The notes beneath the pieces are model-generated. The model searched no databases. It was not told the DNA's origin and saw only the letters and a program-made list of their open reading frames with translations. Made by a program: the position numbers and the translations under genes. A DNA stretch of 64,000 nucleotides from an uncultured Actinomycetes bacterium (lineage in GTDB: Bacteria; Actinomycetota; Thermoleophilia; Gaiellales; JAICJC01), in assembly GCA_963727235.1 (NCBI GenBank), contig CAVSFZ010000023.1:248-64247 (forward strand), written 5' to 3'. Positions 5,876 to 61,268 of the stretch are shown here, one piece after another (positions within the stretch are counted from its first letter, which is position 1; each line of letters begins with the position of its first letter).

Positions 5876-7798
5876 TCAGGCCGGCGGCACGAACAGGCCC
5901 CGCGCTCCGCTCCAGCTGCGCCGATCGACCGACGGGCCCGAGACGCGCTGCGGCCTTCCGGTGATCGTGCGCCCGTCGAAGGCGACCCGGTACAGGTCGG
6001 CGCCCTGAGTGAAGTACACAAACGATCCGATCCGCGTGATCGTGGTCGGCTGGATGTACGACCCGCCGATCTGGAACATGGCCACATGCTGTACGGCGGC
6101 GCCGAGCAGACCACTCTGGGGCTCGAACGGCCGTGAGTACAGGGCCGAGTCCCCGACCTTGATGTAGAAGAGCCGCCCCGAGGCCGGGTCGTAGAAGGCA
6201 CCGGCGATGCGGAGGCCGGCACCGGTGCCGACGAATCCCGAGAGGCCGTACAGCGGCAGGTCCCGAGCGGCCCCCACGGCGCCTCCGTTGAACGAGCGGG
6301 CGATCAGATGGTCTGCCACGGTGAACGTGTACAGCGTCGGCCCGACCATGAACGCTCCCTGCGATCGTGACCAGTTGACGCCCGACGGAACCGTGCTGGG
6401 GCTGGTGGACATCGAGGCTCCGCTGAAGCCGGTTCGCACCAGCCCGCGGCTCCCGAGTGTGTAGAGGGCGCCGAGCGTGGTGCCCACTGAACCTTGAGCG
6501 ACCGTCGTCCCGCCCGCCGTGGGGAACATGGCCAGACGAGGCCGGTACATGCCGTTCGTGTAGCCGGTGTCAGAGCCCATCCACAGCCCCTCCGGGGTAA
6601 CCAGAAAGGCGTACACGCCGGTGCCGCGTGGCTTTCGCCCCGGATTCCACGAGAACGGCATGCCGTTGATCGGATCGAGCGCGGCGATGCCCGAGCGCGG
6701 CACCGCACCGGGGGCCGGCTGGGCGCCGCGGCCCCGCGGATCGGCGACCGTGTTCTCCATCCAGCGCTGGTGTCCACCGGCGTACACTGCGGTGCCGGTG
6801 ACCGCGATCTGGGTGATGCTGTCGCCGCCCGTCGGATCGTCCCAGGTCTCGAGCTGATGGGCGCCCACCGCGCGCGCATCCCACCGGCTGATCGAATCGC
6901 ACAAGCCGATGCCTCCGCCGGTGGCGCCGACCACGAGATAGCTGCTGTCGGGCGAGAACGCGACGTCGCGAATGATCCCACCGACCTTCAGCTTGCAGGC
7001 GGTCTTGAACTGATCGGTCTCCCAGTTTGCGACCGACACCGAACCGCCCTGGAGATTGAGCATTGCGATCTGCGCGCGGTCGAGACCGTTGACGGTGGTA
7101 AACGATCCGACCGCGATCAGCCGGCTGCCGTCGGGCGCGACGTCGAAGTGGGTCACCTCCAGCGCGCCCACGGTGGGGGCGCCAAAGCTCACGTTCACAT
7201 TGGGGTCCACGGCGCCCGAACCGGCGTCCACCGCGGCAAATCCCGTGCGGGGCTGCCCACCGACGGTGGCGAATGCCCCGCTGACAAACAGCCTGCCGGC
7301 GATCACGGCGGAGTCGTCAACGATGCCCGCACCCATCGCGGGATGGAACGACGGGTCGACCGAGCCGTCGGCCAGACGCAGCCGGACGATGCCGCGCCGG
7401 TTGTCGCCGTTGACCTTGGTGAAGCGGCCGCCCACGAACACGCCCCTGCCCCCCGGGTCGGCGCTGAGCGTGAACACGCCGCCGCCGGCAAACGTGGGCG
7501 CAAACTGTGCGTCGATCGCCCCGGTGGCGGCATCAAACGCGAACAGGTCGCCGCGGTCGAGCACCGCCCCTCCCGGGGTCCGCACCTTGGTGAACGACCC
7601 GCCCACCACGATCGTGTTGCCGACCCGCACCAGCGCCTGGACGCGGCCGTCGAGCACCTGAGGGCTCCAGTTGACCGGGTTCTGTGCGACCACCACCGCC
7701 TGCGGCCCGGTGGCAGCGGCCGCGGTGGAGGCGCACCCCAGCGCCGCGGCGGCCGCCATCACCGTTGCCCCGAAAATCATCTTGATATATTGCAACAA
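5876..7798 (-). CDS. secreted repeat protein (beta-propeller-like repeats), paralog 2
   Basis: 640 aa. The N-terminus (M)LQYIKMIFGATVMAAAAALGCASTAAAA looks like a signal peptide. Long identical blocks shared with paralog 1: LDRAQIAML, GGDSIT.IAVTGTA.YAGGHQRWM, GIAALDP.NGMPFSWNPGR.PRG.GV. The start is TTG 7798 or 7795, after GGGAG. Confidence 0.8.
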   Translation of the reverse strand: MLQYIKMIFGATVMAAAAALGCASTAAAATGPQAVVVAQNPVNWSPQVLDGRVQALVRVGNTIVVGGSFTKVRTPGGAVLDRGDLFAFDAATGAIDAQFAPTFAGGGVFTLSADPGGRGVFVGGRFTKVNGDNRRGIVRLRLADGSVDPSFHPAMGAGIVDDSAVIAGRLFVSGAFATVGGQPRTGFAAVDAGSGAVDPNVNVSFGAPTVGALEVTHFDVAPDGSRLIAVGSFTTVNGLDRAQIAMLNLQGGSVSVANWETDQFKTACKLKVGGIIRDVAFSPDSSYLVVGATGGGIGLCDSISRWDARAVGAHQLETWDDPTGGDSITQIAVTGTAVYAGGHQRWMENTVADPRGRGAQPAPGAVPRSGIAALDPINGMPFSWNPGRKPRGTGVYAFLVTPEGLWMGSDTGYTNGMYRPRLAMFPTAGGTTVAQGSVGTTLGALYTLGSRGLVRTGFSGASMSTSPSTVPSGVNWSRSQGAFMVGPTLYTFTVADHLIARSFNGGAVGAARDLPLYGLSGFVGTGAGLRIAGAFYDPASGRLFYIKVGDSALYSRPFEPQSGLLGAAVQHVAMFQIGGSYIQPTTITRIGSFVYFTQGADLYRVAFDGRTITGRPQRVSGPSVDRRSWSGARGLFVPPA

Positions 7799-8519: not shown

Positions 8520-8663
8520 GCCTCACCCGCTGGAGGCACGCACAACAGGGGGCTTGCACTTCCCCCCGCCCGGGGATGCCGTCCGGTCAGCGACCCGGCA
8601 CAGTGAGTCTGGGTGTGCCGAGCCTTGCTCGGACTTGGGGCTGATCGACTTTGGAGGGGAACG

Positions 8664-9875
8664 ATGGATCCTCGCTGCACGCGGTCGTCAAACGAGAGCG
8701 GGCAGACGCTGCCGCTGGTGGTTGCGTTCGTGCTGGTTCTGATGATCATGTGCGGCGCCGTGATCGACATCGGAAACGCCTATCGCGTGCACCAGCAGCT
8801 GCAGGCGTCGGCAGACGCGGCGGCTGCGGCCGGCGCGAGCAACCTCCCATCAGCGGCCGCGGCAATCACCGCGGCCACCAAGTTCAGCGCGGGGTCGGGC
8901 GGCAAGAACCCGATCGCCGGCGCAGGGCCGGTCGCAGTCTCTGCGACCGCCGACTGCTCGACCAGCCCGGACTTCTGCAGCCCGGCAAACACCGTGCACG
9001 TGACGCAGGACGCCGACGTACCGACCACGTTTCTGCGAGTGATCGGGATCGACACGATTCCCGAGACCGTGCACGCCCAGGCCTGCTCCCCGTGCGGCGG
9101 GCTGCCGCTGGACGTGATGATCGTGCTCGACCGGTCGGGATCGATGTCGGGGACAAAGCTGACCTCGGCCAAGGACGGCATCCTGGCGTTCCTGGGTTCG
9201 ATGGACCCGTCCCAGGACAACGTCGGTCTGGCGGTGCTGCCGCCGGCTGCCAACGCCGGCAGCCCTTGCGCGGCCTCCGCATCGGGGAACTACAACCTCG
9301 TCGGCAGCTCGTATCTGCTGGTGCCGTTGAACAACACCTATGCCTTCTCGGCCGGGAATCTCAATCCCAGCTCGCAGCTTCTCTCCACTCTCAGCTGTGT
9401 GCAGGCGGGTGGCCAGACCGCCTACGCGAACGCCCTCGACGCCGCTCAGGCCGAACTCGACGCGCACGCACGGGCGGGCACCCAGCGGGTGATCATCATC
9501 CTCTCGGACGGCGCCGCCAACTCCGGGCCGAATTATCTCCCCAACACGTCGCCGTACCGGACGCGTCCATGCGGCCAGGCCGTGAACGTGGCGACCGCGA
9601 GCAAAGCTCAGGGCGTGCTGATGTACTCGATCGCCTACGACATCTCCGGCGCGGGCGCGGACCCATGCTATGCAGCCCAGGGGGCGATCGTGAACGGCCG
9701 GCCGGCGGGCTCGAGCACCACCCCCGAGGTACCGGCGATCCAGTCGAACGAGGCGCTGCAGCAGATCGCAAGCCCCGGGAACTACTACGCCCAGCCACAG
9801 CCGACGCAGCTGACGACGATCTTCCTCGCCATCAGCGCCGACATTGCCATGGGCACCAGCCGCATCAACGGCTGA
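8664..9875 (+). CDS. TadE/TadG-like N-terminal membrane segment fused to a von Willebrand factor A domain
   Basis: GGAGGGGA lies before ATG 8664. N-terminus MDPRCTRSSNESGQTLPLVVAFVLVLMIMCGAVIDIGNAY is TadE/G-like. LDVMIVLDRSGSMSG carries the vWA MIDAS motif DxSxS. Later VIIILSDGAAN. Confidence 0.75.
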   Translation: MDPRCTRSSNESGQTLPLVVAFVLVLMIMCGAVIDIGNAYRVHQQLQASADAAAAAGASNLPSAAAAITAATKFSAGSGGKNPIAGAGPVAVSATADCSTSPDFCSPANTVHVTQDADVPTTFLRVIGIDTIPETVHAQACSPCGGLPLDVMIVLDRSGSMSGTKLTSAKDGILAFLGSMDPSQDNVGLAVLPPAANAGSPCAASASGNYNLVGSSYLLVPLNNTYAFSAGNLNPSSQLLSTLSCVQAGGQTAYANALDAAQAELDAHARAGTQRVIIILSDGAANSGPNYLPNTSPYRTRPCGQAVNVATASKAQGVLMYSIAYDISGAGADPCYAAQGAIVNGRPAGSSTTPEVPAIQSNEALQQIASPGNYYAQPQPTQLTTIFLAISADIAMGTSRING

Positions 9876-9881
9876 GAAGTA

Positions 9882-9926
9882 CGCATGGAGGGGGCGGTAG
9901 CGGGGGCGCACGGCCCCCTCCATGCG
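9882..9926 (+). terminator. hairpin after the vWA gene (13 bp perfect stem, 19 nt loop)
   Basis: CGCATGGAGGGGG ... CCCCCTCCATGCG begins 7 nt after the TGA at 9873-9875. No U-tract. Confidence 0.4.
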
Positions 9927-10149
9927 GAAGAAGTTGGGTGATCCTTCCAGGCTTTACGGTTTGTTCACGAACTGATGCCTGGGTGCTTACACCTTCTGCC
10001 GATGACTACTGCGCCCCATCATCGACACCCTGATCCGATCCCACGGGGCCACCGGCCACACCTCCCGGCCGGGCCACACCTCCCCCACCCGCCCGGCGCT
10101 CAATGCCGACTCTGAGCGCCGGGAGTGGGGAGCGTGTAGCGTCTGAAGG

Positions 10150-11730: not shown

Positions 11731-12357
11731 TCAGGAAGCGACAGCCGCCCGCAGCGACTCGACGACCTGGTCGCTGGTCATCGGCTGCGAGAACATCGGG
11801 TAGTCGCGAGCGGTGGCAACCCGCTGTTCCTCGTCACTTGTGGCCGCCGTGCAGTCGGTCAGCGTGACCACGTCGTAGCCCTTCTCATAGGCGGTGCGCA
11901 TGGTCGACTCGACACAGCAGTTTGTCAGGAACCCCGCCAGGATGACCGTCTCCACCTCACGGCTTCGCAGCACGAAATCGAGGTTGGTGGAGGCGAATGT
12001 ATCCAGCCCCCGCTTGCCCTCGATCACGATGTCGTCCTCCTCCGGGGCGAGCTGATCACAGATCTCGGCGCCCCACGTTCCCTTGACGAACGCACCAGAG
12101 TCGATCACGCCCTTGAGAATCCCGTACACCTTGTCGGGGTCACCGAGCTCGCCGTAGCCGGGTGCGAACGTGATCGGTGCGTGCAGCACCGTCACCCCGG
12201 CAGCGCGAGCCTCGGCAACCACCTTGCGGGTGTTCTCAATCATCTGACTGTCGTCCATCACGCCTTTGACGGCGTCGTGCAGAGCACCGCCCTCCGAGGT
12301 GAAGTCGTTCTGATACTCGATCAGCACCACAGCGGTCTTGTCGGGATCGATCTCCAT
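11731..12357 (-). CDS. isochorismatase-family cysteine hydrolase
   Basis: TAVVLIEYQNDF, KRGLDTFASTNLDFVLRSREVETVILAGFLTNCCVESTMRTAYEKGYDV (catalytic Cys context). ATG 12357 overlaps the upstream stop in a TGATG junction. Confidence 0.85.
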   Translation of the reverse strand: MEIDPDKTAVVLIEYQNDFTSEGGALHDAVKGVMDDSQMIENTRKVVAEARAAGVTVLHAPITFAPGYGELGDPDKVYGILKGVIDSGAFVKGTWGAEICDQLAPEEDDIVIEGKRGLDTFASTNLDFVLRSREVETVILAGFLTNCCVESTMRTAYEKGYDVVTLTDCTAATSDEEQRVATARDYPMFSQPMTSDQVVESLRAAVAS

Positions 12358-19671: not shown

Positions 19672-20356
19672 GCTCGTTCCACCCTTCGACCAGTGGTATA
19701 GACCAGTTCAGAGTTGACACTACCGCATCGGCCTGGTCGAGGTGCTCGGAGGCCATTGTGCCCTCCACCACCACGCAGCGCATTCCTGCCGCATGGGCCG
19801 ACTCCAGTCCCATGATCGAATCCTCGAAAACGAGCACATCGGCGGCGGGGATCGGCTCGCGCAGGCCGGCGTTGACAAGCTCGAGCGCGCGCCGGTAGCC
19901 CTCGGGGTCGGGCTTCCCGCGTTTCACGTCCTCGGCCGCCACGATCACGTCGAACAGCTCCCGCAGATCGCTTGCCACCAGCACGGCGGCGATCTCGTCG
20001 CCGGCCGCGCCCGAGGCGATCGCCACCGGCACCCGGGCCGCCACCTCGCGCACGAACCGGGCCGCCTCGGGACGAACCGGCGACCGCACCGCGATCTCCT
20101 CGAGGTAGAGCTCGGCGCGGCGATCGATCAGGCGCTGGTCGAGGCCGTCCCCGTCCAACTGGAAGCGCGTCAGCATGCGTTCGACGATCTCGGGGTCGCT
20201 ATAGCCCGCGAAGTCCGCGAAGTAGAGCTCCTCCGAGACCTCGATTCCGATCTCCGAAAACATCCGCACGAAGATCCGCGCCAGGAGCGGCTCGTCGTCG
20301 GAGATCGTGCCGTTGAAGTCGAACAGCACCACTCGCGGAGGTGTCAGTAGCGCCAC
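19661..20356 (-). CDS. HAD-superfamily hydrolase (subfamily IA-like)
   Basis: VVLFDFNGTISDDEP (DxD-type motif I region), KRGKPDPEGY, and VFEDSIMGLESAHAAGM. Its stop overlaps the start of the downstream oxidoreductase by 11 nt. The start is uncertain (GTG 20356 or 20395). Confidence 0.75.
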   Translation of the reverse strand: MALLTPPRVVLFDFNGTISDDEPLLARIFVRMFSEIGIEVSEELYFADFAGYSDPEIVERMLTRFQLDGDGLDQRLIDRRAELYLEEIAVRSPVRPEAARFVREVAARVPVAIASGAAGDEIAAVLVASDLRELFDVIVAAEDVKRGKPDPEGYRRALELVNAGLREPIPAADVLVFEDSIMGLESAHAAGMRCVVVEGTMASEHLDQADAVVSTLNWSIPLVEGWNEHAE

Positions 20357-21456
20357 ACGATCTACGATACGGCATCGACACCGCGACGCTCGCAACCCAC
20401 CGCACCGACCGCTGGCTGGTGCTCCAAAGCGACGCTCCGGATCCCTTCGGGAGGCTGGAGACGTTCCTGGCCGACTCCGGATTCGCGGTCACGCCCGGCG
20501 CATCGGCCGACGCCGGCACCATGGTCGCCGACCTCTATCTGGGCTACGGGCTGGCCGCCACGCTCGCAGGCGTGACCACCGACCAGCCGTCTGAGCCCTG
20601 CCGACTCCCCGGGCTTGCCTGCCACATCCATGCGCGCTCGCATCAGCCGGAACCGGGGGTGGCGTCGGTGGGGAAGTTCCAGCCGACCTGGTCGCCGGCT
20701 CAGTACCGCTCGGCGATCGAGGCCGCCCAGGCCGCCATCGGCCGCGGCGACGTCTACCAGGTCAACCTCGTGCAGCACATGAAGGCGCCGTTCTCGGGCG
20801 ATCCGCGGGGAGTGTTGCCGCTGCTCGCCCCGGTAGCAGGGGCGTGGGCGATGGACATGCATGGGGACGGCTGGTCGGTCGTGTCGGCTTCGCCGGAGCT
20901 GTTTCTGCGCACGCAGGGCCGGTGGGTCGAGACGATGCCGATCAAGGGAACGCGCCCGGCCGAGGGCGGCGGCGCGATCGCCGACAGCGCCAAGGATCGC
21001 GCCGAGCACATCATGATCGTCGACCTCGAGCGCAACGACCTGGGCCGGGTGTGTGAACCGGGCAGCGTGCACGTGCCGTCGCTGATGACCGAGTCGCCGA
21101 TGGCGGGGGTGCGCCATCTCATCTCGACGGTGGCGGGCACGCTGCGACCGGAGGTCGGCCTGGCCGAGCTGCTGCGGGCGACGTTCCCCGGCGGTTCGGT
21201 GACCGGTGCACCCAAGATCTCGGCGATCAATCACATCGCCCGGCTGGAGCCGGTCGGCCGGGGAGCGTCGATGGCGGCGCTGGGGACGGTGTCCCCGAAC
21301 GGCGATCTCGACCTGGGCCTGACGATCCGCACGTTCGCGATCGCCGGCTCCGAGATTCACCTGTGGGTGGGCGGCGGGATCGTGTGGGACTCCGATTCCG
21401 AGGCCGAGGTCGAGGAGTCGCTGGTCAAGGCACGACCGCTGCTAGCGCTGCTCTAG
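20341..21456 (+). CDS. pabB: chorismate-binding enzyme, aminodeoxychorismate synthase component I-like
   Basis: GDVYQVNLVQ, SASPELFLR, MPIKGTRP, DRAEHIMIVDLERNDLGRVC, TFPGGSVTGAPK, and GGGIVWDSDSEAEVEES. The start is uncertain. Confidence 0.8.
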   Translation: MSVAPHDLRYGIDTATLATHRTDRWLVLQSDAPDPFGRLETFLADSGFAVTPGASADAGTMVADLYLGYGLAATLAGVTTDQPSEPCRLPGLACHIHARSHQPEPGVASVGKFQPTWSPAQYRSAIEAAQAAIGRGDVYQVNLVQHMKAPFSGDPRGVLPLLAPVAGAWAMDMHGDGWSVVSASPELFLRTQGRWVETMPIKGTRPAEGGGAIADSAKDRAEHIMIVDLERNDLGRVCEPGSVHVPSLMTESPMAGVRHLISTVAGTLRPEVGLAELLRATFPGGSVTGAPKISAINHIARLEPVGRGASMAALGTVSPNGDLDLGLTIRTFAIAGSEIHLWVGGGIVWDSDSEAEVEESLVKARPLLALL

Positions 21457-22483
21457 CCTCGCGGCCGGCCGGTGACTGCCACCACTGGGCATGGCCGAGC
21501 ACGTAGGTGTCCCAGGCCCAGTCGGCCTTGGGCCGGTCGTGCTCCACGCCCCAGTAGTAGTCGAGGAACGAGATTCCGTACTGGAACTGGCAGATCGCCA
21601 GCACGTCCACGAGCGCCGCGCGCTCGGCGGGGGTGAGCGGCTCGGCTCGGTGGTAGGCGGCGATCAGCGCCTGCGCGTGGGTGATGTCGAAGGCGCCATC
21701 GTCGCCGTCGGAGATCCTGTTCCAGAAGAAGCAGTTGCGCTCGATGGCGACCGCCAGGTCGAGCAGGCGCGGGCCGCAGTCGGCCTGATGGAAGTCGATG
21801 ATGCCGGTGACGCGATCGCCCTCGAAGAAGAGGTTGTTGGTCTGCCAATCGCCGTGCAGCGGAGCGACCGGGAGGTCGGGGGCGACCGGCGCCAGCCGCT
21901 CGAACAGCTCGGAGTAGGCGTCATCGACCGGTGACAGGTCGCGGCCGGAGAGGTGCTCGGCCACGGCAGGGCGCTCACGCGAGAGCTGCGCCACGACCTG
22001 GGACGGCGCCCGATCGAGCGGCCCCAGCTGCACCACGAACCCGGCCTGGGGCTGCGGCGTGATCGGCGCGAAGTCGACACCGGCCTGATGGAATTGCGCC
22101 AACATGGTGCCGGCCGCCTTCACGTGGGCGATCGACCGAAACGGCTCCCAGGTGTCGGTGTCGGTGTAGGAGTCGAACCCACCGGCCGGCTCCCATAGCT
22201 CGTACCACAGCTCGCCCCGCTCGATCAGGCCGAGCGGGCGGGTGGCCGGCACGCCGCGGTCGGCGACGTGGGAAGCCACGGCGTGCTGCCACTCGACCTG
22301 GGCAAGCGCCCGGCCCATGGCGGGCTGACGCTTGAGGTAGACGACCCCCTGAGGCGTCTCGCACCGGGAGACCGCGAACAGCCAGCGGCGATGTCGCTCA
22401 GTGACCCGCACACCGGCGCCGAGCACCTCCTCAGCCTCGGTCTGCTCGATCGGATCCCAGTAGCGGTCGTCAACTCCCATCAC
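21425..22483 (-). CDS. APH/homoserine-kinase-II-like phosphotransferase
   Basis: PLHGDWQTNNLFFEGDRVTGIIDFHQAD is the kinase catalytic and DF(G)-like motif region. The start is GTG 22483 or ATG 22480. Confidence 0.75.
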   Translation of the reverse strand: MMGVDDRYWDPIEQTEAEEVLGAGVRVTERHRRWLFAVSRCETPQGVVYLKRQPAMGRALAQVEWQHAVASHVADRGVPATRPLGLIERGELWYELWEPAGGFDSYTDTDTWEPFRSIAHVKAAGTMLAQFHQAGVDFAPITPQPQAGFVVQLGPLDRAPSQVVAQLSRERPAVAEHLSGRDLSPVDDAYSELFERLAPVAPDLPVAPLHGDWQTNNLFFEGDRVTGIIDFHQADCGPRLLDLAVAIERNCFFWNRISDGDDGAFDITHAQALIAAYHRAEPLTPAERAALVDVLAICQFQYGISFLDYYWGVEHDRPKADWAWDTYVLGHAQWWQSPAGREARAALAAVVP

Positions 22484-22486
22484 GGG

Positions 22487-22492
22487 ACGGTA
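22487..22492 (-). promoter_or_regulatory. candidate -10 box (TACCGT) for a leaderless kinase transcript
   Basis: On the minus strand, TACCGT is followed by 6 nt (CCCGTG) and then ATG 22480. It directly abuts palindrome copy A. Confidence 0.3.
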
Positions 22493-22493
22493 C

Positions 22494-22526
22494 GTGAATA
22501 AATGGTGCCTGGCACCATTTATTCAC
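22494..22526. repeat. palindromic repeat copy A (33 bp, linker AT)
   Basis: GTGAATAAATGGTGCCTGGCACCATTTATTCAC is a perfect palindrome. It fills the 56-bp gap between two divergent gene starts. Confidence 0.95.
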
Positions 22527-22530
22527 GGTC

Positions 22531-22536
22531 TAGCAT
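22531..22536 (+). promoter_or_regulatory. candidate -10 box (TAGCAT) for a leaderless sulfurtransferase transcript
   Basis: TAGCAT is followed by 6 nt (CCGGTG) and then ATG 22543. It lies 5 nt after palindrome copy A. Confidence 0.3.
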
Positions 22537-22539
22537 CCG

Positions 22540-23385
22540 GTGATGGGATCGGATCTGCTGGTGACGGCCGAGTGGCTTCGTGACCACCTCGACCAGGTGC
22601 GGGTGCTGGACGTGCGCGGCGAGGTGGCAAGTGACGAGCCCCGCTACCGCGCCTACGTCGAGCGCTATCGCGAAGGCCACATCCCCGGAGCCGTGTTCGC
22701 CGACTGGCGCACCGACTTCACCGATCGCGACGCGGATGTGCCCGTGACGCTCGCGCCGCCGGCCGTGTTCGAGGCCGACGCAGCGCGGCTCGGAATCGGA
22801 GCCGACACGGTGGTGGTCGCCTATGACGACTACCGAAACGCGCTCGCGGGACGGATCGCATGGGTGCTTCGAAGTGTGGGGCACGACGCCACCCACATCC
22901 TCGACGGCGGGCTCTCCGCCTGGGAGGCGGCTGGACTCCCACTGGAATCCGGCGAGCACCACCCCGAGCCGCCCGAACCCCCGCTGCGTGTGACCTCGGT
23001 CGACGGGCTGATCGACATCGACGCTGTACGCGACGCGCTGGCCGCCGGCCTCCAGGTCGTGGACGCGCGCTCGACCGCGCAGTACACCGGCGCCGAAACC
23101 CACTCCCGCCGGGCCGGCCACATCCCCGGCGCGATCTCGATGCCGTACACCGACCTGTTGGCACCCGACGGCCGGTTCCTCGAGCCGGAGCAGCTCGCCG
23201 CACGGCTCGCCGAGGCAGGCGTCAACACCTCCGCGCCCGGGGTTACCTACTGCAACGGCGGCGTCTCGGCCACCGTGGTCGCGCACGCCGTCGAGCTCGC
23301 CGGCGGGTCGCGGCCAAGGATCTACGACGGCTCCTGGAATGAGTGGGGCAACCGCAGCGACACCCCTGTCGCCACCGGCGACTAG
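22540..23385 (+). CDS. tandem-rhodanese thiosulfate/3-mercaptopyruvate sulfurtransferase
   Basis: LVTAEWLRDHLDQVRVLDVR, two rhodanese modules, and the active-site loop YCNGGVSA. The start is GTG 22540 or ATG 22543. Confidence 0.85.
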   Translation: MMGSDLLVTAEWLRDHLDQVRVLDVRGEVASDEPRYRAYVERYREGHIPGAVFADWRTDFTDRDADVPVTLAPPAVFEADAARLGIGADTVVVAYDDYRNALAGRIAWVLRSVGHDATHILDGGLSAWEAAGLPLESGEHHPEPPEPPLRVTSVDGLIDIDAVRDALAAGLQVVDARSTAQYTGAETHSRRAGHIPGAISMPYTDLLAPDGRFLEPEQLAARLAEAGVNTSAPGVTYCNGGVSATVVAHAVELAGGSRPRIYDGSWNEWGNRSDTPVATGD

Positions 23386-28702: not shown

Positions 28703-29245
28703 GTGACGCTCGCCGTCGTGGCAGTCATCGGGTGCTATGCACTCGGCTGCCTGACGGCGGGCTACTACCTCGTCCGGCTAACGGCCGGCGCGGACGTGCG
28801 CACGGGCGGCACCGGTTCCACCGGGGCCCGCAACGTCGGTCGTGTGGCGGGCGTGCGCGTGGCCGCGCTGACGCTCGCGCTCGACTGTGCCAAGGGAGCG
28901 ATCGCGGTGGCCGTGGCGGGCGCGCTGACCGACTCCACCGCGGTGGCTGCGGCGGCCATGGTGGCGGTGGTCGCCGGCCACGTGTATCCGGCCCAGCTCC
29001 ACTTCCGCGGCGGCCGGGGCCTTGCAACCGCGCTGGGGGCGATGGCGGTGCTCGACTGGCGGGTGGCGCTGGTCGGCGTGGTGGCGGCGCTGCTGGCAAC
29101 TGCCGCGACGCGCACGCCGACGGTGGGCGGATTGGTCGGGGCGGCCTCAGCCCCGGCCGGCGCCGCAGTGCTGGGCGCCGGCCGGGCTGTGATCCTGGGG
29201 ACGCTGGCAACCCTCGCCATCATCCTGGCGGCTCACCGCCGGTGA
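28703..29245 (+). CDS. plsY: glycerol-3-phosphate acyltransferase PlsY-like membrane protein
   Basis: Polytopic hydrophobic protein with GGTGSTGARNVGR (compare the PlsY GSGNxGATN motif), LDCAKGAIAV and FRGGRGLATALG. Its stop TGA 29243-29245 lies inside palindrome copy B. Confidence 0.7.
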   Translation: MTLAVVAVIGCYALGCLTAGYYLVRLTAGADVRTGGTGSTGARNVGRVAGVRVAALTLALDCAKGAIAVAVAGALTDSTAVAAAAMVAVVAGHVYPAQLHFRGGRGLATALGAMAVLDWRVALVGVVAALLATAATRTPTVGGLVGAASAPAGAAVLGAGRAVILGTLATLAIILAAHRR

Positions 29246-29272
29246 ATAACGGTGCCTGGCACCGTTATTCAC
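29242..29272. repeat. palindromic repeat copy B (31 bp, linker C; 33 bp if the flanking G...C pair is counted)
   Basis: GTGAATAACGGTGCCTGGCACCGTTATTCAC is perfect. The flanks CACCGCC (29234-29240) and GGCGGTG (29276-29282) extend the inverted repeat. Confidence 0.95.
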
Positions 29273-29286
29273 CCTGGCGGTGTGGA

Positions 29287-29319
29287 GTGAATAATTGGTG
29301 CCTGGCACCAATTATTCAC
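29287..29319. repeat. palindromic repeat copy C (33 bp, linker TT)
   Basis: GTGAATAATTGGTGCCTGGCACCAATTATTCAC is perfect. It lies 14 bp from copy B and contains the stop codon (29316-29318, minus strand) of the FAD oxidoreductase gene. Confidence 0.95.
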
Positions 29320-34150: not shown

Positions 34151-34183
34151 ATGAATAATTGGTGCCTGGCACCAATTATTCAT
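34151..34183. repeat. palindromic repeat copy D (33 bp, linker TT, terminal bases A...T)
   Basis: ATGAATAATTGGTGCCTGGCACCAATTATTCAT is perfect. It lies between convergent stops at 34146 and 34194. Confidence 0.95.
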
Positions 34184-36438: not shown

Positions 36439-36822
36439 GTGAAACTCCCTCTCCCACACGCGTTCGCGCCGCCGCGGCTGACGCTTCGCTGCGAGTGCGG
36501 CACCGAAGGACTGGTGGGCTATGGCGACCAGTGGACGTGCCCAAACTGCGGCCGAAACTATGACACGTCACACATCCCCAGCGAGGATTACGACCGCATC
36601 CTCGCCCTCAACCGCCGGTACACGATCGGTGCGGTGGCAGTGGTTGCCGTGCTCGCCGTGATCGTGTTGGTAATCGCGATCACAGGGCAGATCGTCACGA
36701 TCTTCGCCGGATTGGCCCTGACCCTGCTCGGCTGGTTTCTCTTCATCAAACCCGTCATCCATCGACGGCACAAGAATGCCGTCGGCGATCTCGTGCGCAA
36801 CTGGGATCTGGAGGCCGAGTGA
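36439..36822 (+). CDS. zinc-ribbon protein with two C-terminal transmembrane segments
   Basis: LRCECGTEGLVGYGDQWTCPNCGRNYD (CxC...CxxC), then IGAVAVVAVLAVIVLVIAITG and IFAGLALTLLGWFLFI. GAGGAAG lies 8 nt before GTG 36439. Its stop overlaps the next start (GTGA). Confidence 0.55.
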   Translation: MKLPLPHAFAPPRLTLRCECGTEGLVGYGDQWTCPNCGRNYDTSHIPSEDYDRILALNRRYTIGAVAVVAVLAVIVLVIAITGQIVTIFAGLALTLLGWFLFIKPVIHRRHKNAVGDLVRNWDLEAE

Positions 36823-37304
36823 CCCGGACGGTCGACTCCGGCCCACGGGTACCCGAAGCCCCGCGACTCGACGGCGACTCTCGCGGCCAGCCGGTGGTGC
36901 TCGCCACCCTGGCAGTGCCGTTCGAGCCCGAGTCAGCCCGAGTCGCAATCCAGGCGGCGCTGGAAAGCCATGCCAAGCTGGTGGTCGTGGACGCGGTCGA
37001 GATGCCGCTGTGGCACCAGTGCCTGACCACCCGCCGAGCAGAGCTCGAGCTGGACGAGGACCGGCAGGAGATCCGGCGGCTGGTCGGAGATGCGCACGGC
37101 CTGGGATTGCAGGTCGAGCACCTGCGAGTGCGCAGCCCGCGGCCGGTGGACGCCCTGCTCGAGGTGGTGGAGGAGTGCAATGCCGGCCTGCTGGTGCTCG
37201 GCCCCGACCCCGCCAGGCTCACCAAACGGCTGTTCGCACGCGCGGTGCGCAAGATCCGCAAGCGGGCGCCGTGCCTGACGTGGATCGCCGGCGAAGGCCC
37301 CTGA
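36819..37304 (+). CDS. USP-like (adenine-nucleotide alpha-hydrolase-like) protein, paralog 2
   Basis: 161 aa. VVLATLAVPFEPESARVAIQAALE...LLVLGPDPARLTKRLFARAVRKIRKRAPCLTWIAGEGP. Same length as 34194..34676 and collinear with it. Confidence 0.6.
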   Translation: MTRTVDSGPRVPEAPRLDGDSRGQPVVLATLAVPFEPESARVAIQAALESHAKLVVVDAVEMPLWHQCLTTRRAELELDEDRQEIRRLVGDAHGLGLQVEHLRVRSPRPVDALLEVVEECNAGLLVLGPDPARLTKRLFARAVRKIRKRAPCLTWIAGEGP

Positions 37305-37313
37305 GAGCCGGCG

Positions 37314-37346
37314 GTGAATAAAAGGTGCCTGGCACCTTTTATTCAG
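37314..37346. repeat. palindromic repeat copy E (33 bp, linker AA; last base G instead of C)
   Basis: GTGAATAAAAGGTGCCTGGCACCTTTTATTCAG. It contains the stop codon (37343-37345, minus strand) of the CheW-CheC gene. Confidence 0.95.
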
Positions 37347-38350
37347 GCCGCGCGCCGGCCCAGGCCGAGGTTCTGGAGCAGTGCCTCGACCGAAGCGATG
37401 CGGGGCATGAACAGGAACGAGAACTGCGCGTCTGTGGAATCGACGCTCATCACCGAGCGCATCATCACCACCGGATCTCCTGGGTCGACGCCGGCCAGGC
37501 AGCGCTCGACCAGCGAGCCCAGCACATCCACGTCCACCACGGGCGGCTCGGGATCGAGCGTCATGCCGGTCATCTCCACGATCGCATTCAGGTATGAGCT
37601 GGCCAGGATGTTTCCCACCTCGCCCAGCGCAGACCGGCCCACCTCGTCGTCGATGTTCGTCCCCAGCAGCCGGCAGACGCTTCCGCCCGATCCTTCCGGG
37701 AACATCAGCAGCACGCGGCCGCCGTCTCGCCGCACCGCCGTCTCGATCACGGCCGACGCGGCGGCGGACGAACCGATCTTGTCGGCCGCCTCGGCCACCG
37801 TCACCAGTGCCGCATCGGGGTAGCTGATCTCGACAGGGCGGCCAAGCAAGGCCGACAACGAGGTGGCGGCATTCCCCGAACCGATGTTGGCGACCTCGAA
37901 CAACGCACTTCGCTGCATCTCGCTGAACCCGAAGGCGTCGCCGGTCAGCGGCGCCCAGGCACCCGCGACCACTCCCGGCTCGACCACCGGCACCACCTCA
38001 CCGCCGTCGATGACCACGATCCCGGCCACATACGGGCCCCGGGCGACCGCCGGCACCTCGACCCGCTCCAGCCACATCTGGCCGATCAGCTCGTCCACGG
38101 CGAACGCGCGGCGGCGACCTCCGGCCCAGACGATCACGGCCGATCGGCGATCGGCGTGGGCGCCGACACCCAGCACATCGGCGATGTCGACCACCTCCAG
38201 CGCCGAGTCGCGGAACATGACCATGGGCACGCCTGCGACCCGATGCACGCTGCGCCCCGTCAGCTCGAGTGTCTGATCGACGTTGTCGATCGGAACGGCC
38301 CACAGCATGCCCCCCGCCTTGACGACGAGAACGTGGACGGGTTCGGACAT
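37343..38350 (-). CDS. CheW-like domain fused to a CheC-type (CheC/CheX/FliY family) phosphatase domain
   Basis: The N-terminal ~130 aa are CheW-like (HVLVVKAGGMLWAVPIDNVDQTLEL...VAGVPMVMFRDSALEVVDIADVLG...AVIVWAGGRRRAFAVDELIG). The C-terminal half has two CheC motifs: ALFEVANIGSGNAATSLSALLG and ALGEVGNILASSYLNAIVEMTG. Confidence 0.8.
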   Translation of the reverse strand: MSEPVHVLVVKAGGMLWAVPIDNVDQTLELTGRSVHRVAGVPMVMFRDSALEVVDIADVLGVGAHADRRSAVIVWAGGRRRAFAVDELIGQMWLERVEVPAVARGPYVAGIVVIDGGEVVPVVEPGVVAGAWAPLTGDAFGFSEMQRSALFEVANIGSGNAATSLSALLGRPVEISYPDAALVTVAEAADKIGSSAAASAVIETAVRRDGGRVLLMFPEGSGGSVCRLLGTNIDDEVGRSALGEVGNILASSYLNAIVEMTGMTLDPEPPVVDVDVLGSLVERCLAGVDPGDPVVMMRSVMSVDSTDAQFSFLFMPRIASVEALLQNLGLGRRAA

Positions 38351-39795: not shown

Positions 39796-39963
39796 CCGGG
39801 TCTCCCTTCGTCGTCAATAGGCAGCGATATCCTACTGTTCTCGCAGCCCCCCAGTCTATGGTGGTTACTCCACCTGATGGCGAGATGTCCATGCCGAGGT
39901 GGACATGAAAGCCTGCAACAAGCGCCAAGAAGGTCGGCGCGGCGGGCAACCGGCTCCCGGCGG

Positions 39964-39969
39964 TACCAT
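39964..39969 (+). promoter_or_regulatory. candidate -10 box (TACCAT) for a leaderless PucR-type regulator transcript
   Basis: TACCAT is followed by 6 nt (CTGGAT) and then GTG 39976. Confidence 0.3.
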
Positions 39970-39975
39970 CTGGAT

Positions 39976-41793
39976 GTGTCCGTTTCGCACACATCCGCAG
40001 ATGCCGCGGAGGCGGCCGTGCCGATCGCGCCACAGCGCGGCGTCGACAGCCGCTATCTCCACCAGATCATCAACACGGTGTCGTCGACGCTCGACCTCGA
40101 CCGGGTGCTGCGGGCAATCGTCGAGGTGATCACCGACGCGATCGACTGCCACGCCTGCTTCATCTACTTCGTCGACCCCGACGACGGCTCGCTCACGCTG
40201 CGATCGGTGTCCGAGCCCTACGGCAGCCTGGTCGGCAGGCTCCGCTTCGAGCACGGCGAGGGTCTGGCCGGATGGGTGGCGGTCAACAACCAGCCGGTGT
40301 TCCTCGACGACAACGCGCTGGCCGACCCGCGCGTGAAGATCGTGCCGGAAGCCGAGGAAGAGGACTACCAGTCGCTGGTCGCGGTGCCGCTGAACGACAA
40401 GTCGGGCACCGTCATCGGCGTGATCGCGCTGCACGCCGAGGCGCCCCGGGAGTTCACCCAGGCCGACTCAGACTTCCTGATGCATTCGGCCACCCTGGTG
40501 GCCGGTGCGATCGAGAACGCGCGGCTGTACCAGGACACCCGCCGCCGGCTGGCGTTGGTGGAGGGCCTGGCCGACCTGGCCCGGGCGGTTGCCGACGCGG
40601 CCCGCCTGGACGACCTGCTGCCGGCCGTGGCCAAGCGCGCACACCGGCTGCTGACCGTCGACGCCTGCCAGCTGTATGTGGTCGATCCCGCCGGGGGAAG
40701 CGAGCTCTTGTGCAGCGCCTGGCCGCCCGAGGCCGGTCCGCCGACGCCGATCACCGCTCAGGAGATGGGGGTCGAGATCGCCCGCCGCACCCCCGGCAGC
40801 GGACGCCTGGCTGCTCGCCTGTGGGATCGCGACTCGCAGGGATCGGCGGCGGTGCTGTCGCTGGTGGCCGCCGATGAGCTGGTGGGATTCCTCGCCCTGC
40901 GGATTCCCGAGGGCCGCCGGATGGACGCCGAGGAGCGCGAGATCGCGGCTTCGATCGCCGGGCAGACGGCCGTTGCCATCAAGAAGGTCGAGCTGATCGA
41001 CCGGCTCACGGAGCGAAACGCGATCAAGGACCTGCTCGAGGATCTGGCGCACGCCACCGCCACCCCGGAGGAGCTCGGCGCCCGCGCCCGGGCGCTGGGC
41101 ACGGATCTCGACCGGCCGCATCTGGTGATGCAGGCCGTGCCCCGTCCGGGGACGGCCTCACGGACGTGGGACGAAGTCGCAACGGCGTTGGAGAGCACCG
41201 CCACCCGCTCGTTCCCCGGCTCGCTGTTCGACCGCCGCGACGCCGCTCTGCGCGGACTGATCCGACTCGACGCCGGCGGCGAGAAGGCCGCCGTGGCGAA
41301 GCTGCGCGAGCTGCACGCCACCCTCAACGCCCGCCACCCGCTCGCAATCGGGCTGTCGCAGCGCTGCGAAGGGGCGGCCAGCTTCCGCACCGGATTCGAA
41401 GAGGCCGAGCAGGCCGTGGCCGCAGCCGCGATCGTCAGTCCCGAGCCAAGCGTGGTCGGCTTCGACGACCTGGGCGCCTACAAGTACCTGCTGCGGGTGG
41501 GCCAGGACGGCCGGGTGCGCGACCCCCGCGGCGACGCTTTGAAGGTGCTGGTCGAGTACGACCGGCGGCACCGGTCACAGCTTTTGTCGACCCTGGAGGA
41601 GTACCTCAAGCGCCGCGGAAACATCGCAGCGGCGGCCCAGACGCTGTACGTGCACCCCAACACCCTGCGGCAGCGCCTGCGGCGAATTCAGGATCTCACC
41701 GGGCTGGACGTCGCCAACGAAGATTGGCTCATGATCGAGATCGAGCTGAAGCTGCTGCGGCTCGAGCACACGCTGGGCCGACCAAGCTCGTGA
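39976..41793 (+). CDS. GAF-domain protein with a C-terminal PucR-type helix-turn-helix (PucR/CdaR family regulator)
   Basis: LDLDRVLRAIVEVITDAIDCHACFIYFVD...GEGLAGWVAVNNQPVFLDD...VAVPL...GVIALH (GAF), followed by a second GAF-like region. The C-terminus is LEEYLKRRGNIAAAAQTLYVHPNTLRQRLRRIQDLTG. The upstream part of ORF 39349.. is antisense to the ACAD-like gene and was not called. Confidence 0.75.
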   Translation: MSVSHTSADAAEAAVPIAPQRGVDSRYLHQIINTVSSTLDLDRVLRAIVEVITDAIDCHACFIYFVDPDDGSLTLRSVSEPYGSLVGRLRFEHGEGLAGWVAVNNQPVFLDDNALADPRVKIVPEAEEEDYQSLVAVPLNDKSGTVIGVIALHAEAPREFTQADSDFLMHSATLVAGAIENARLYQDTRRRLALVEGLADLARAVADAARLDDLLPAVAKRAHRLLTVDACQLYVVDPAGGSELLCSAWPPEAGPPTPITAQEMGVEIARRTPGSGRLAARLWDRDSQGSAAVLSLVAADELVGFLALRIPEGRRMDAEEREIAASIAGQTAVAIKKVELIDRLTERNAIKDLLEDLAHATATPEELGARARALGTDLDRPHLVMQAVPRPGTASRTWDEVATALESTATRSFPGSLFDRRDAALRGLIRLDAGGEKAAVAKLRELHATLNARHPLAIGLSQRCEGAASFRTGFEEAEQAVAAAAIVSPEPSVVGFDDLGAYKYLLRVGQDGRVRDPRGDALKVLVEYDRRHRSQLLSTLEEYLKRRGNIAAAAQTLYVHPNTLRQRLRRIQDLTGLDVANEDWLMIEIELKLLRLEHTLGRPSS

Positions 41794-48579: not shown

Positions 48580-49171
48580 CAGCGACGATCCCTACCTGTC
48601 CTCGACCGTCGAGGAGTTCCTCGATTCGCTGGCCGGTCGCACCCCCGCCCCAGGCGGGGGTGGAGCGGCTGCTGTGACCTGTGCGATGGCCGCCGCGTTG
48701 GTTGAGATGGCGACCTCGTTCGGGTCGGCCCGCGGCCTGGAGCGCACGCACGAGCGCGCGCATCAGCTGCGGCTGACGGTGCAGCAGCTGGCCCACGCCG
48801 ACGGCGAGGCCTACGGCGCGGTGATCGCGGCGTTACGCCTGCCGCTCGGCGAAGACCGCCAGCACCAGCTCGACGCCGCGGTGGCGGGGGCGATCGCATC
48901 GCCGATGGCGATACTCGAGATCGCGTCCGAGGTGGCCACGCTGGCCGCTGACGTGGCCGAGACCGGTAACCGCAACCTGGAGGGCGATGCGCTCACCGGC
49001 GCGCTGCTCGCCGAGGCCGCATCGCGCTCAGCCGCGACCCTCGCCCAGCTGAACGTGACCATGCTCTCGCGCCACGCCATGATCGACGCCCACCTCGAGG
49101 ATCTCCGACCCGCACTGGCCCGCGCCACCCGCGCTCGCGAGCGCGCGGTCAGCGCCTACGCAGCCATGTGA
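48548..49171 (+). CDS. cyclodeaminase/cyclohydrolase-family protein (FTCD C-terminal domain; methenyl-THF cyclohydrolase-like)
   Basis: FLDSLAGRTPAPGGGGAAAVTCAMAAALVEMA. The start is ATG 48548 or 48554 and overlaps the fhs 3' end. The stop TGA 49169-49171 lies inside palindrome copy F. Confidence 0.75.
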   Translation: MRMEKQSDSSSSDDPYLSSTVEEFLDSLAGRTPAPGGGGAAAVTCAMAAALVEMATSFGSARGLERTHERAHQLRLTVQQLAHADGEAYGAVIAALRLPLGEDRQHQLDAAVAGAIASPMAILEIASEVATLAADVAETGNRNLEGDALTGALLAEAASRSAATLAQLNVTMLSRHAMIDAHLEDLRPALARATRARERAVSAYAAM

Positions 49172-49200
49172 ATAAAAGGTGCCTGGCACCTTTTATTCAC
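49168..49200. repeat. palindromic repeat copy F (33 bp, linker AA)
   Basis: GTGAATAAAAGGTGCCTGGCACCTTTTATTCAC is perfect. Confidence 0.95.
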
Positions 49201-49226
49201 ACCCCCCTCCAACGCGGTGCCGCCCG

Positions 49227-49257
49227 GTGAATAACGGTGCCTGGCACCGTTATTCAC
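49227..49257. repeat. palindromic repeat copy G (31 bp, linker C)
   Basis: GTGAATAACGGTGCCTGGCACCGTTATTCAC is identical to copies B and J. It lies 26 bp after copy F. Confidence 0.95.
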
Positions 49258-49289
49258 CATCACGGCGTCGCCCACATGGGGCGTCGATG

Positions 49290-49295
49290 TAGACT
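49290..49295 (+). promoter_or_regulatory. candidate -10 box (TAGACT) for a leaderless purD transcript
   Basis: TAGACT is followed by 7 nt and then ATG 49303. There is no Shine-Dalgarno in between. Confidence 0.35.
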
Positions 49296-49302
49296 CGCAG
49301 CC

Positions 49303-50589
49303 ATGCGCGTTTTGGTGGTCGGATCTGGGGCACGCGAGCATGCGCTTGCCTGGAAACTGAGCTCGTCGCCCGAACTCACGTCGCTGCATGCCGCGCCGGG
49401 GAATCCCGGCATCGGCACTCTGGCTGAGCTTCACGACGTGGCCGTCACCGACCTCGAAGGTTTGACGTCGCTGGCCCAGCGAATCGAGGTCGACCTGGTG
49501 GTGGTCGGACCCGAGGTGCCGCTGGTCGCCGGACTCGTCGACCGGTTCACGGCCGCGGGCATCCCGGCCTTCGGCCCGGATATGGCCGCGGCCGAACTGG
49601 AGGGCTCCAAGGCGTTTTCAAAGCAGCTGATGTCCGACATCGGCGTGCCCACCGCGCGCTACTCGGTGTGCGACACGATGGCCGCGGTCGAGGCCGCCAT
49701 CGCCGAGTCGGACGGCCAGGTTGTGATCAAGGCCGACGGGCTGGCCGCCGGCAAGGGCGTGGTCGTGTGCTCGTCTGCGCGTGAGGCCAACGCCGCCGCG
49801 CGCGCGTGCCTGGTTAACGGGCGCTTCGGTACCGCCGGCGGCCGGGTGGTGGTGGAGGAGCGGATGTGGGGGCCCGAGATCTCATTGCTGGCGCTGTGCG
49901 ACGGCGAGCGGGTGCTGCCGCTGGCACCGGCCCGCGACTTCAAGCCCGCCTACGACAACGACGAGGGGCCGAACACCGGCGGGATGGGCTGCATCTCGCC
50001 CCTGCCGGATGTCGACGCGGAGTTGATCGAGCAGATCCTGGCCACCGTGCACCGGCCGGTGGTGTACGAGATGGCCCGCCGCGGAAAGCCGTTCCGCGGC
50101 TGTCTCTACGCCGGGCTGATGCTGACCGCAGACGGCCCCCGCGTGATCGAGTTCAACGCCCGCTTCGGCGATCCCGAGGCCCAGGTGATCCTGCCGCGGC
50201 TGGACGGTGACCTGCTGCCTGCGCTGCACGCCTCAGCCACCGGCTCGCTCGAGCACACAACCTTGGCGGCCGCCGACAACGCCTGCGTGACGGTCGTGAT
50301 GGCAGCCCGCGGATATCCGGACGCGCCCGAGGCGGGTGCTGTGATCGACGGCATCGACGACGCCGAGACGATCGAGGGCGTGCAGGTATTCCACGCCGGC
50401 ACTGCGATCCGCGACGGCGCCCTGGTCGCCGCCGGCGGCCGGATTCTGAACGTGACCGCGCTCGCACCCGATCTCGCCGCCGCCCGCGAACGCGCATATG
50501 CGGCGGTCGATCGGATCACGATCGCGGGATCTCACCATCGAAGCGACATAGGAGCCGAAGCAGTGGCAAAGGAACACAACCATGTCTGA
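49303..50589 (+). CDS. purD: phosphoribosylamine--glycine ligase
   Basis: MRVLVVGSGAREHALAWKL, AAPGNPG, and the ATP-grasp blocks VIKADGLAAGKGV and EFNARFGDPE. Confidence 0.95.
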   Translation: MRVLVVGSGAREHALAWKLSSSPELTSLHAAPGNPGIGTLAELHDVAVTDLEGLTSLAQRIEVDLVVVGPEVPLVAGLVDRFTAAGIPAFGPDMAAAELEGSKAFSKQLMSDIGVPTARYSVCDTMAAVEAAIAESDGQVVIKADGLAAGKGVVVCSSAREANAAARACLVNGRFGTAGGRVVVEERMWGPEISLLALCDGERVLPLAPARDFKPAYDNDEGPNTGGMGCISPLPDVDAELIEQILATVHRPVVYEMARRGKPFRGCLYAGLMLTADGPRVIEFNARFGDPEAQVILPRLDGDLLPALHASATGSLEHTTLAAADNACVTVVMAARGYPDAPEAGAVIDGIDDAETIEGVQVFHAGTAIRDGALVAAGGRILNVTALAPDLAAARERAYAAVDRITIAGSHHRSDIGAEAVAKEHNHV

Positions 50590-51063: not shown

Positions 51064-51094
51064 GTGAACAACGGTGCCTGGCACCGCTATTCAC
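51064..51094. repeat. palindromic repeat copy H (31 bp type, degenerate)
   Basis: GTGAACAACGGTGCCTGGCACCGCTATTCAC has two arm mismatches. It starts 3 nt after the purE stop. Confidence 0.9.
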
Positions 51095-61136: not shown

Positions 61137-61224
61137 CAGGGCGCCTGTCGAACCTGAGCGTTACTTGAATAATTGGTGCCTGGCACCAATTATTCACAGG
61201 GCGCGTGTCGAACCTGAGCGGTAC
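61137..61224. repeat. 28-bp direct repeat pair bracketing palindrome copy I
   Basis: CAGGGCGCCTGTCGAACCTGAGCGTTAC (61137-61164) and CAGGGCGCGTGTCGAACCTGAGCGGTAC (61197-61224) match at 26 of 28 positions and are offset by 60 bp. Confidence 0.9.
61165..61197. repeat. palindromic repeat copy I (33 bp, linker TT; first base T instead of G)
   Basis: TTGAATAATTGGTGCCTGGCACCAATTATTCAC. Confidence 0.95.
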
Positions 61225-61237
61225 TCGGCGTAAGACG

Positions 61238-61268
61238 GTGAATAACGGTGCCTGGCACCGTTATTCAC
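61238..61268. repeat. palindromic repeat copy J (31 bp, linker C)
   Basis: GTGAATAACGGTGCCTGGCACCGTTATTCAC is identical to B and G. The last two codons and the TAA stop of the glycosyltransferase (GGT GAA TAA, minus strand, stop 61261-61263) are repeat sequence. Confidence 0.95.

Follow-up and report, generated by a model that had tools for sequence, protein, structure and literature searches.

The kinase-rhodanese junction with and without the palindrome

The window, a stretch of 64,000 nucleotides of contig CAVSFZ010000023.1 from an uncultured Actinomycetes bacterium, contains a perfect palindrome, here called copy A, between the starts of two divergent genes. On the minus strand lies a gene for an APH-family phosphotransferase ("kinase-like", 21425-22480, 351 aa from its ATG; Pfam PF01636, E = 7e-23) and on the plus strand a gene for a rhodanese / thiosulfate sulfurtransferase of 280 aa (22543-23385; Pfam PF00581). 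Gene order around this pair is conserved among relatives. A check of the sequence showed that copy A occupies positions 22493-22527 and consists of two perfect 17-nt arms around a single central T, 35 bp in all (CGTGAATAAATGGTGCC-T-GGCACCATTTATTCACG, that is CGTGAATAAAT GGTGCC T GGCACC ATTTATTCACG). It is flanked by -10-like hexamers of two putative leaderless promoters: TACCGT on the minus strand (22487-22492, ACGGTA on the plus strand), followed by 6 nt (CCCGTG) and the kinase ATG at 22480-22478, and TAGCAT on the plus strand (22531-22536), followed by 6 nt (CCGGTG) and the rhodanese ATG at 22543. An earlier note on this DNA had placed the palindrome between the two starts, with a TANNNT hexamer exactly 6 nt before each ATG, and we could verify these coordinates.

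The same note described the divergent region as 56 bp long and both genes as beginning with GTGATGGGA. The first figure holds as the distance between two in-frame GTG codons, while the ATGs are 62 bp apart. We take the ATG to be the true start of both genes because the database rhodanese identical to that of the window (P0001, 100% identity) has 280 aa, the APH orthologue in the related locus L001 has 351 aa, and the upstream GTG is lacking before both genes of L001 and before the APH gene of L102. GTGATGGGA is indeed present at both gene starts (22483-22475 as reverse complement and 22540-22548) and comes from the in-frame GTG before each ATG. As this GTG is missing in L001 and L102, the symmetry is specific to the window and probably a local coincidence.

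The palindrome is absent from at least nine distinct orthologous loci, with rhodanese identities of 59-73% (L097, L101, L103, L104, L105, L107, L108, L109 and L111). In these empty alleles the start codons are 21-23 bp apart and the interval is made of 5-7 nt, the 10-mer TTTGTACCAT (ACGGTACCAT in L097) and 6-7 nt. The 10-mer consists of two -10-like hexamers which lie on opposite strands and share TA; that of the rhodanese is TACCAT, that of the kinase TACAAA or TACCGT. In the distant empty loci L101 and L103-L111 the kinase-side hexamer is TACAAA (plus-strand TTTGTA), and its final A misfits TANNNT. Start codons 21-23 bp apart leave space neither for leaders and ribosome-binding sites nor for separate promoters. 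The gap holds only the two overlapping hexamers, and the putative leaderless geometry claimed by the earlier note is thereby well supported by comparison. The predicted divergent transcription starts of the empty alleles are 23-24 bp apart. Bidirectional promoters with overlapping -10 elements have divergent starts 10, 18 or 23 bp apart, and the 23-bp spacing is a described class in E. coli (PMC12825309). The combination of overlapping -10 elements and ~23-bp spacing fits the empty alleles only, for in the window the starts would be 63 bp apart. A scan of metagenomes for closer relatives gave orthologues of at most 67% identity, among them additional empty alleles and no new filled one.

Filled alleles are present in the window (variable nucleotides AT/AT, see below), in L001 (94% identity, TC/GA), in L102, an independent short-read (k141) contig (88%, C/G), and in L006 and its sister strains (79%, C/G). 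In all, five relatives have an element at this place. Where TACCAT stands in the empty alleles, all filled ones have TAC before and TAG-CAT after the element, and the filled sites differ from the empty ones only by the insertion between TAC and CAT. This comparison with relatives lacking the palindrome, which had been proposed together with the idea of an insertion into a promoter region, found the compact junction of overlapping -10 hexamers and shows that copy A is a member of a repeat family inserted in a conserved compact divergent junction, with both -10-like hexamers kept. For the rhodanese, all filled alleles have TAGCAT and all empty ones TACCAT, at a distance of 6-8 nt from the start codon; a TANNNT is kept on this side in every orthologue examined. 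Adaptation of the flanks to the element, also proposed earlier, is borne out to this extent only. Kinase-side hexamers of the orthologues are TACGTT, TACCGT, TAGGTT, TATGTT or TACAAA, 5-7 nt from the start codon, and in L001, L006, L097, L099 and L102 a TANNNT lies 5-8 nt upstream of the start on both sides (8 nt only for the rhodanese of L006). On the kinase side the palindrome is separated from the -10 hexamer by 0, 1, 1 and 13 bp in the window, L001, L102 and L006, respectively; toward the rhodanese the corresponding gaps measure 3, 2, 2 and 28 bp.

In L099 (71% identity, positions 5890-5995) the same junction is occupied by another element, TGAATAA-GAGGGGTCAGTCGCCAT-TTATTCA, present as two inverted copies. 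It has the 7-nt ends of the main family and a non-palindromic interior. The shared TGAATAA/TTATTCA ends may be the recognised part. Many genes are fragmented in the related long-read assemblies (L001, L004-L007 and L098), which indicates errors of the frameshift type, and single-base differences there need caution.

The leaderless signal was judged by its conservation among orthologues instead of by a window-wide count of TANNNT hexamers. Upstream of all in-frame candidate starts of the window, true and false ones counted together, such hexamers showed no enrichment (9 found, ~12 expected). Leaderless-type geometries were seen at two other places, TACCAT-N6-GTG at 39976 (39957-39978), beside a divergent gene, and TAGACT-N7-ATG at 49303 (49287-49305), ~25 nt downstream of the family copy at 49226-49258. 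A consensus promoter scan did not find a sigma-70 -35/-10 pair at copy A. Resemblance of the core TGGCAC to a sigma-54 -24 box was dismissed, as the -12 element is mismatched and Actinobacteria are not known to have sigma-54. On the other side of the kinase gene a chorismate-binding-enzyme gene (20341-21456, plus strand) shares 32 bp with its 3' end (21425, minus strand) in a tail-to-tail overlap that lacks a hairpin, and read-through from this gene would go antisense over the kinase gene toward copy A.

A dispersed family of hairpin repeats

Ten copies with the core GGTGCCTGGCACC are present in the window, ~1 copy per 6 kb, while none were found in shuffled sequence. With genes of the window called from codon-position GC content and inspection of open reading frames (ORFs), four convergent junctions hold six of the other nine copies and two tandem junctions the remaining three, and only copy A lies between divergent starts. 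It was correctly noted before that copy A is the sole copy not located behind a gene, the other nine being at gene 3' ends. From ~0.9 Mb of loci recovered from related Thermoleophilia/Gaiellales-like metagenome-assembled genomes (MAGs) we collected ~125-140 non-redundant copies. Their consensus is S-GTGAATAA-(1-2 nt)-GGTGCC-W-GGCACC-(1-2 nt)-TTATTCAC-S, i.e. SGTGAATAA-(1-2 nt)-GGTGCC-W-GGCACC-(1-2 nt)-TTATTCACS, a unit of 33-35 bp with the same sequence on both strands. A pattern scan of one genome per species placed all matches listed in a small clade of uncultured "Actinomycetes" MFD (Microflora Danica) MAGs, a Gaiellales MAG and a Thermoleophilia MAG; the rhodanese homologues are likewise labelled Gaiellales. 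An Rfam search of the whole window at the gathering threshold gave no match, and a literature search with the family core sequence returned no relevant description, only irrelevant mammalian papers. For these two reasons the sequence family appears to be previously undescribed, while the kind of element is already known. No tRNA was found in the window.

Variation within the family follows the pairing of a hairpin. The nucleotides beside the core are C/G in 63 copies, AT/AT in 18, AA/TT in 14, TT/AA in 9 and CC/GG in 6, with some rarer types, and these 1-2 nt are complementary in 112 of 125 copies, a property that the search pattern did not require. Arm length (1 or 2 nt) varies symmetrically as well. 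Two-sided changes were detected in 14 and 22 of 48 sequences at the alignment columns 14/30 and 15/29, respectively, a covariation that was reached by none of 500 shuffles. The predicted RNA fold of copy A has -27.3 kcal/mol (z = -6.5) for the plus strand and -25.0 kcal/mol (z = -7.7) for the minus strand, and the intact copies at convergent sites have -23 to -29 kcal/mol (z from -5.3 to -5.5). Two unusual copies were seen in L097: at 12110-12150 a variant GTGAATCAAT...ATTGATTCAC in which a change from A to C is mirrored by T to G in the opposite arm, and at 660-700 an asymmetric copy, GAATACAC...GTTTATTC.

The great majority of copies lie at the 3' ends of genes. Among the 78 copies whose context could be classified on both sides 42 (54%) lie between convergent genes, 31 between tandem genes and five between divergent genes, and three of these five are the same orthologous kinase-rhodanese site. 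The GC-rich core hairpin has an A-rich 5' arm and a U-rich 3' arm, and the outer TGAATAA carries stop codons in two reading frames. Neighbouring genes use them: the stop codon lies inside the TGAATAA arm at 49 of 115 adjacent gene ends (~43%; TGA 29, TAA 20), in the window for example at 49169-49171, 29316-29318, 37343-37345 and 61261-61263, so insertions often replace the last codons of genes. From the layout of hairpin and A/U arms, the stop codons in the arms and the concentration between convergent genes, a two-way 3'-end or terminator role is the most plausible one for the family. Placed immediately after genes, and in particular between convergent ones, it would usually act as a compact unit of stop codon and 3'-end hairpin or terminator that works in both directions.

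The other nine window copies are arranged as follows. Between convergent genes lies a doublet made of a C/G variant (29241-29273) and a TT/AA variant (29287-29319); in the right arm of the latter lies the stop codon with which a minus-strand gene ends at 29316. A TT/AA variant at 34151-34183 is likewise between convergent genes, and an AA/TT variant at 37315-37345 lies between the convergent genes 36819-37304 (plus) and 37343-38350 (minus) and gives the minus-strand gene its stop. The AA/TT variant at 49167-49201 overlaps the TGA stop of the gene ending at 49171 and is followed by a C/G variant at 49226-49258, the second of this doublet, upstream of the next plus-strand gene. A degenerate copy in a tandem intergenic region (51064-51094, GTGAACAAC...GCTATTCAC) has a weak fold (z = -1.5). 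The last two copies are a TT/AA variant between convergent genes at 61166-61196 and a C/G variant at 61237-61269, whose right arm contains the stop codon of a gene on the minus strand that ends at 61261. The copy at 61166-61196 has a 27-bp direct repeat on its two flanks (61138-61224, CAGGGCGC[C/G]TGTCGAACCTGAGCG[T/G]TAC), the sole long flanking duplication among ~120 copies.

The central base is T on the plus strand in all ten window copies (22510, 29257, 29303, 34167, 37330, 49184, 49242, 51079, 61181 and 61253). Contigs of related genomes contain both A and T, and neighbouring copies agree in a ratio of only 21:17; as gene direction likewise had no consistent link with it, an orientation rule for the central base was rejected. 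Among near-identical strains the base also differs at the orthologous site (L004 and L007 versus L005 and L006). The pattern could be caused by loop flipping, a regional bias or an effect of polishing.

Copies come and go among relatives. The window doublet at 29241-29319 is absent in L001 and L006, with one variant copy in L097, while the purA-side convergent site is filled in L006 and L097 and empty in the window and L001. Three doublets are present in the window and 13 pairs less than 150 bp apart were found overall; relative orientation within pairs is undefinable because each unit is a perfect palindrome. Conservation in the flank profile ends at the S-GTGAATAA edges of the palindrome, where neither an asymmetric conserved tetranucleotide (GTAG-like) nor a convincing target motif was seen. 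Target-site duplications are at chance or control level (2-mer in 11 of 123 copies, 3-mer in two, 4-mer in one), as are long flanking repeats, and a family-wide TA-duplication mechanism (IS630- or Correia-like) was rejected because of this control-level result. TAC beside the element is enriched 1.65-fold only, and the enrichment of TAG/TAA reflects neighbouring stop codons. In distant relatives (L068:4930-5180, L010:4440-4965, L069:220-800 and L014:6845-6929) palindromes bound a unit of ~195 bp in tandem arrays; this unit is absent from the window, where the 13-nt spacer of the doublet (29274-29286, CCTGGCGGTGTGG) matches its start.

The palindrome is itself a target of insertion. In L007 the orthologue of copy A is interrupted at 8602-9935, exactly between GTGAATAAC and GGTGCC, by a 1334-bp IS110-family element (Pfam Transposase_20 and partial DEDD_Tnp_IS110) inserted without target duplication. 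About 60 nt inside its left end this element contains CTCGTGAATAAC, a copy of the left half of the target, which could be the target guide of a bridge RNA. Published IS110 elements insert into repetitive extragenic palindrome (REP) sequences of Proteobacteria (PMC11208160, PMC12288879).

Explanations of copy A

We consider it likely that copy A is an inserted member of a lineage-specific, high-copy, REP-like hairpin repeat found in uncultured actinobacteria of soil, which splits a two-way leaderless promoter, and not an operator dedicated to this gene pair. According to this explanation the ancestral junction would have been a minimal bidirectional promoter for two leaderless mRNAs, with opposite -10 hexamers sharing TA (TTTGTACCAT/ACGGTACCAT). 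The element would have landed between TAC and CAT, the halves of the former shared -10 region, and either both -10 hexamers survived the insertion or the rhodanese hexamer was rebuilt as TAGCAT. The two promoters would now fire outward from either side of the palindrome, which would be part of neither transcript, and a shared RNA polymerase binding site would have been turned into two promoters with starts 63 bp apart, physically uncoupled by the 40-bp insertion. The region from about -13 to -50 of each promoter would now be repeat instead of the coding sequence of the neighbour. Such foreign sequence would be tolerated because the promoters depend on -10 alone, the empty alleles having the neighbour's coding sequence at these positions.

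Several observations weigh against this explanation. One is the conservation of copy A: its 29 non-variable positions differ at only 0-2 sites between lineages that are 21-54% diverged at 4-fold sites. Between the window and L006, 54% diverged at these sites, at most two outermost bases of the palindrome differ, and in each lineage the two sides of the variable pair have changed in a matching way. Decay would be expected of a passenger with no role at all; either copy A is functional here or a family-wide homogenisation keeps it intact. Selection at the site, family-wide sequence-specific recognition and homogenisation by hairpin-templated repair or conversion are all possible causes, and probably a family-wide protein recognition or a homogenising process acts on the sequence. 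The history of the insertion is also not simple, for a single-gene rhodanese tree joins the empty L097 to the filled L006 and leaves L099 outside the two, which means that one gain is insufficient and that loss or repeated gains are needed. Leaderless starts and terminator function are both inferred from sequence and conservation only, and a consensus terminator scan did not call the palindromes, since their U-rich tract is base-paired as a part of the long stem. Finally, ORFs between nearby copies in the ~0.9 Mb of fragments contained nothing suggestive of a RAYT-like gene.

The earlier note had called the position operator-like and offered a protein binding site as one of two readings. As an operator, the palindrome would be bound by a dimeric regulator that co-controls both promoters through the spacer and -35 regions, with the other copies as sites of the same global regulator. 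The palindrome does overlap the -35 and spacer regions of both putative promoters, four lineages have kept it intact at this junction although their 4-fold sites are up to 54% diverged, and its invariant TGAATAA and GGTGCC blocks resemble sequence-specific recognition, as do the same ends around a different interior in L099. We nevertheless find the operator very improbable and unsupported. Copies sit mostly at 3' ends (42 between convergent ends against five between divergent genes) and are not concentrated at promoters; they overlap stop codons; variable positions and arm length covary as predicted for a stem rather than for half-sites of a dimer; the distance to the -10 boxes, 0-28 bp among orthologues, is not fixed; L099 has a different element at this place; and at least nine orthologous promoters manage without any palindrome.

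A retained insulator is a rather unlikely explanation of the conservation of copy A. The palindrome could act as a two-way terminator or roadblock which shields the leaderless promoters from antisense transcription or read-through, or it could uncouple competing promoters. This would suit the GC hairpin, after which AUUUAUU stands on both strands in the manner of a bidirectional terminator, the 32-bp tail-to-tail overlap of the chorismate-binding and kinase genes with no hairpin between them, the maintenance of the palindrome over substantial divergence, and the competition of polymerases at shared -10 elements documented in E. coli (PMC12825309). Against it, relatives with the empty site share the upstream gene order and manage without the palindrome, and family-wide homogenisation explains the maintenance equally well. 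The GC-rich centre of the palindrome, of a kind that disfavours cruciform extrusion, also speaks against the idea. An extended version of the same idea, we regard as unlikely: the whole family would be no passive selfish element but a self-symmetrising cassette of stop codon and two-way terminator, recognised by its sequence, spread and kept perfect by a novel hairpin-dependent machinery, and serving as an insulator at the kinase-rhodanese junction. If it were true, a shared polymerase site working in one direction at a time would have become two independent leaderless promoters, and co-option as an insulator would explain the intact copy A despite ~50% synonymous divergence.

That the palindrome and its symmetric hexamers are coincidental or a product of long-read errors has next to no probability. 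Frameshift-type fragmentation of genes in related assemblies and the central A/T difference between near-identical strains would be in favour of such an artefact, but the same element is present at the same site in the independent short-read contig L102 and zero copies are expected in shuffled sequence, which effectively refutes it; the hexamers are moreover conserved in many orthologues.

Relation to known elements

REP and REPIN sequences are repetitive extragenic palindromes of Proteobacteria mobilised by RAYT transposases. The inserted repeat described here resembles them as an extragenic palindrome of ~33-35 nt that occurs in hundreds of copies per genome, chiefly behind genes, without target-site duplication, present or absent among relatives, and a target for IS110-family insertion. 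Doublets also occur in it. It differs by its occurrence in Thermoleophilia/Gaiellales-like Actinomycetota, an unrelated sequence, a perfect palindrome where that of REP is imperfect, the lack of a GTAG-type 5' tetranucleotide, and arms that carry stops used by the neighbours. The family is REP-like; we do not call it a member of REP because it lacks the GTAG-type tetranucleotide and nothing suggestive of a RAYT gene turned up between nearby copies.

With bidirectional intrinsic terminators the family shares the GC core hairpin, the A-rich 5' and U-rich 3' flanks on both strands and the convergent position of 54% of classified copies. Such terminators are independently evolved hairpins, whereas here one family is repeated, and copy A lies behind no gene. 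The U-tract is also short and interrupted: the core stem GGUGC/GCACC is followed by AUUUAUUC, GUUAUUCA or UUUUAUUC, with 4-6 U in 8 nt, and this tract is fully paired with the A-rich arm in a 16-bp stem, which is why the scan does not call it. Correia (CREE) elements of Neisseria and miniature inverted-repeat transposable elements (MITEs) are comparable as small repeats in promoter regions with -10-like junctions, and copy A has TA on both sides. The family is much shorter, has no terminal inverted repeats beyond the hairpin and no target-site duplication (neither TA nor another one; 11 of 123 copies, as by chance), and a MITE/Correia-type mechanism was rejected for the lack of such duplication.

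The junction itself can be compared with two kinds of promoters. Bacterial bidirectional promoters with shared or overlapping -10 elements were reportedly described by Warman et al. 2021. The empty alleles are like them in that their opposite-strand -10 hexamers overlap in TTTGTACCAT/ACGGTACCAT and fall in the ~23-bp class, and unlike them in that both transcripts here are putatively leaderless and the module in the window appears to be split by the 40-bp insertion. The leaderless actinobacterial promoter, with TANNNT ~7 nt before an ATG or GTG that serves as both transcription start and start codon, fits the geometry of both strands in the window and that of the rhodanese in all orthologues.

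From these results it follows for annotation that palindromes of this family should be labelled as repeat or 3'-end elements and not as operators. The two kinds of alleles form a natural pair, an intact 23-bp bidirectional, putatively leaderless promoter and the same promoter split by a 40-bp hairpin repeat, which bears on whether sharing of -10 elements couples divergent genes and on the need for sequence upstream of -10. Clues to how such repeats are maintained and spread come from the symmetric changes at their variable positions, from the stop codons that they provide to neighbouring genes and from the precise targeting by an IS110-family element.

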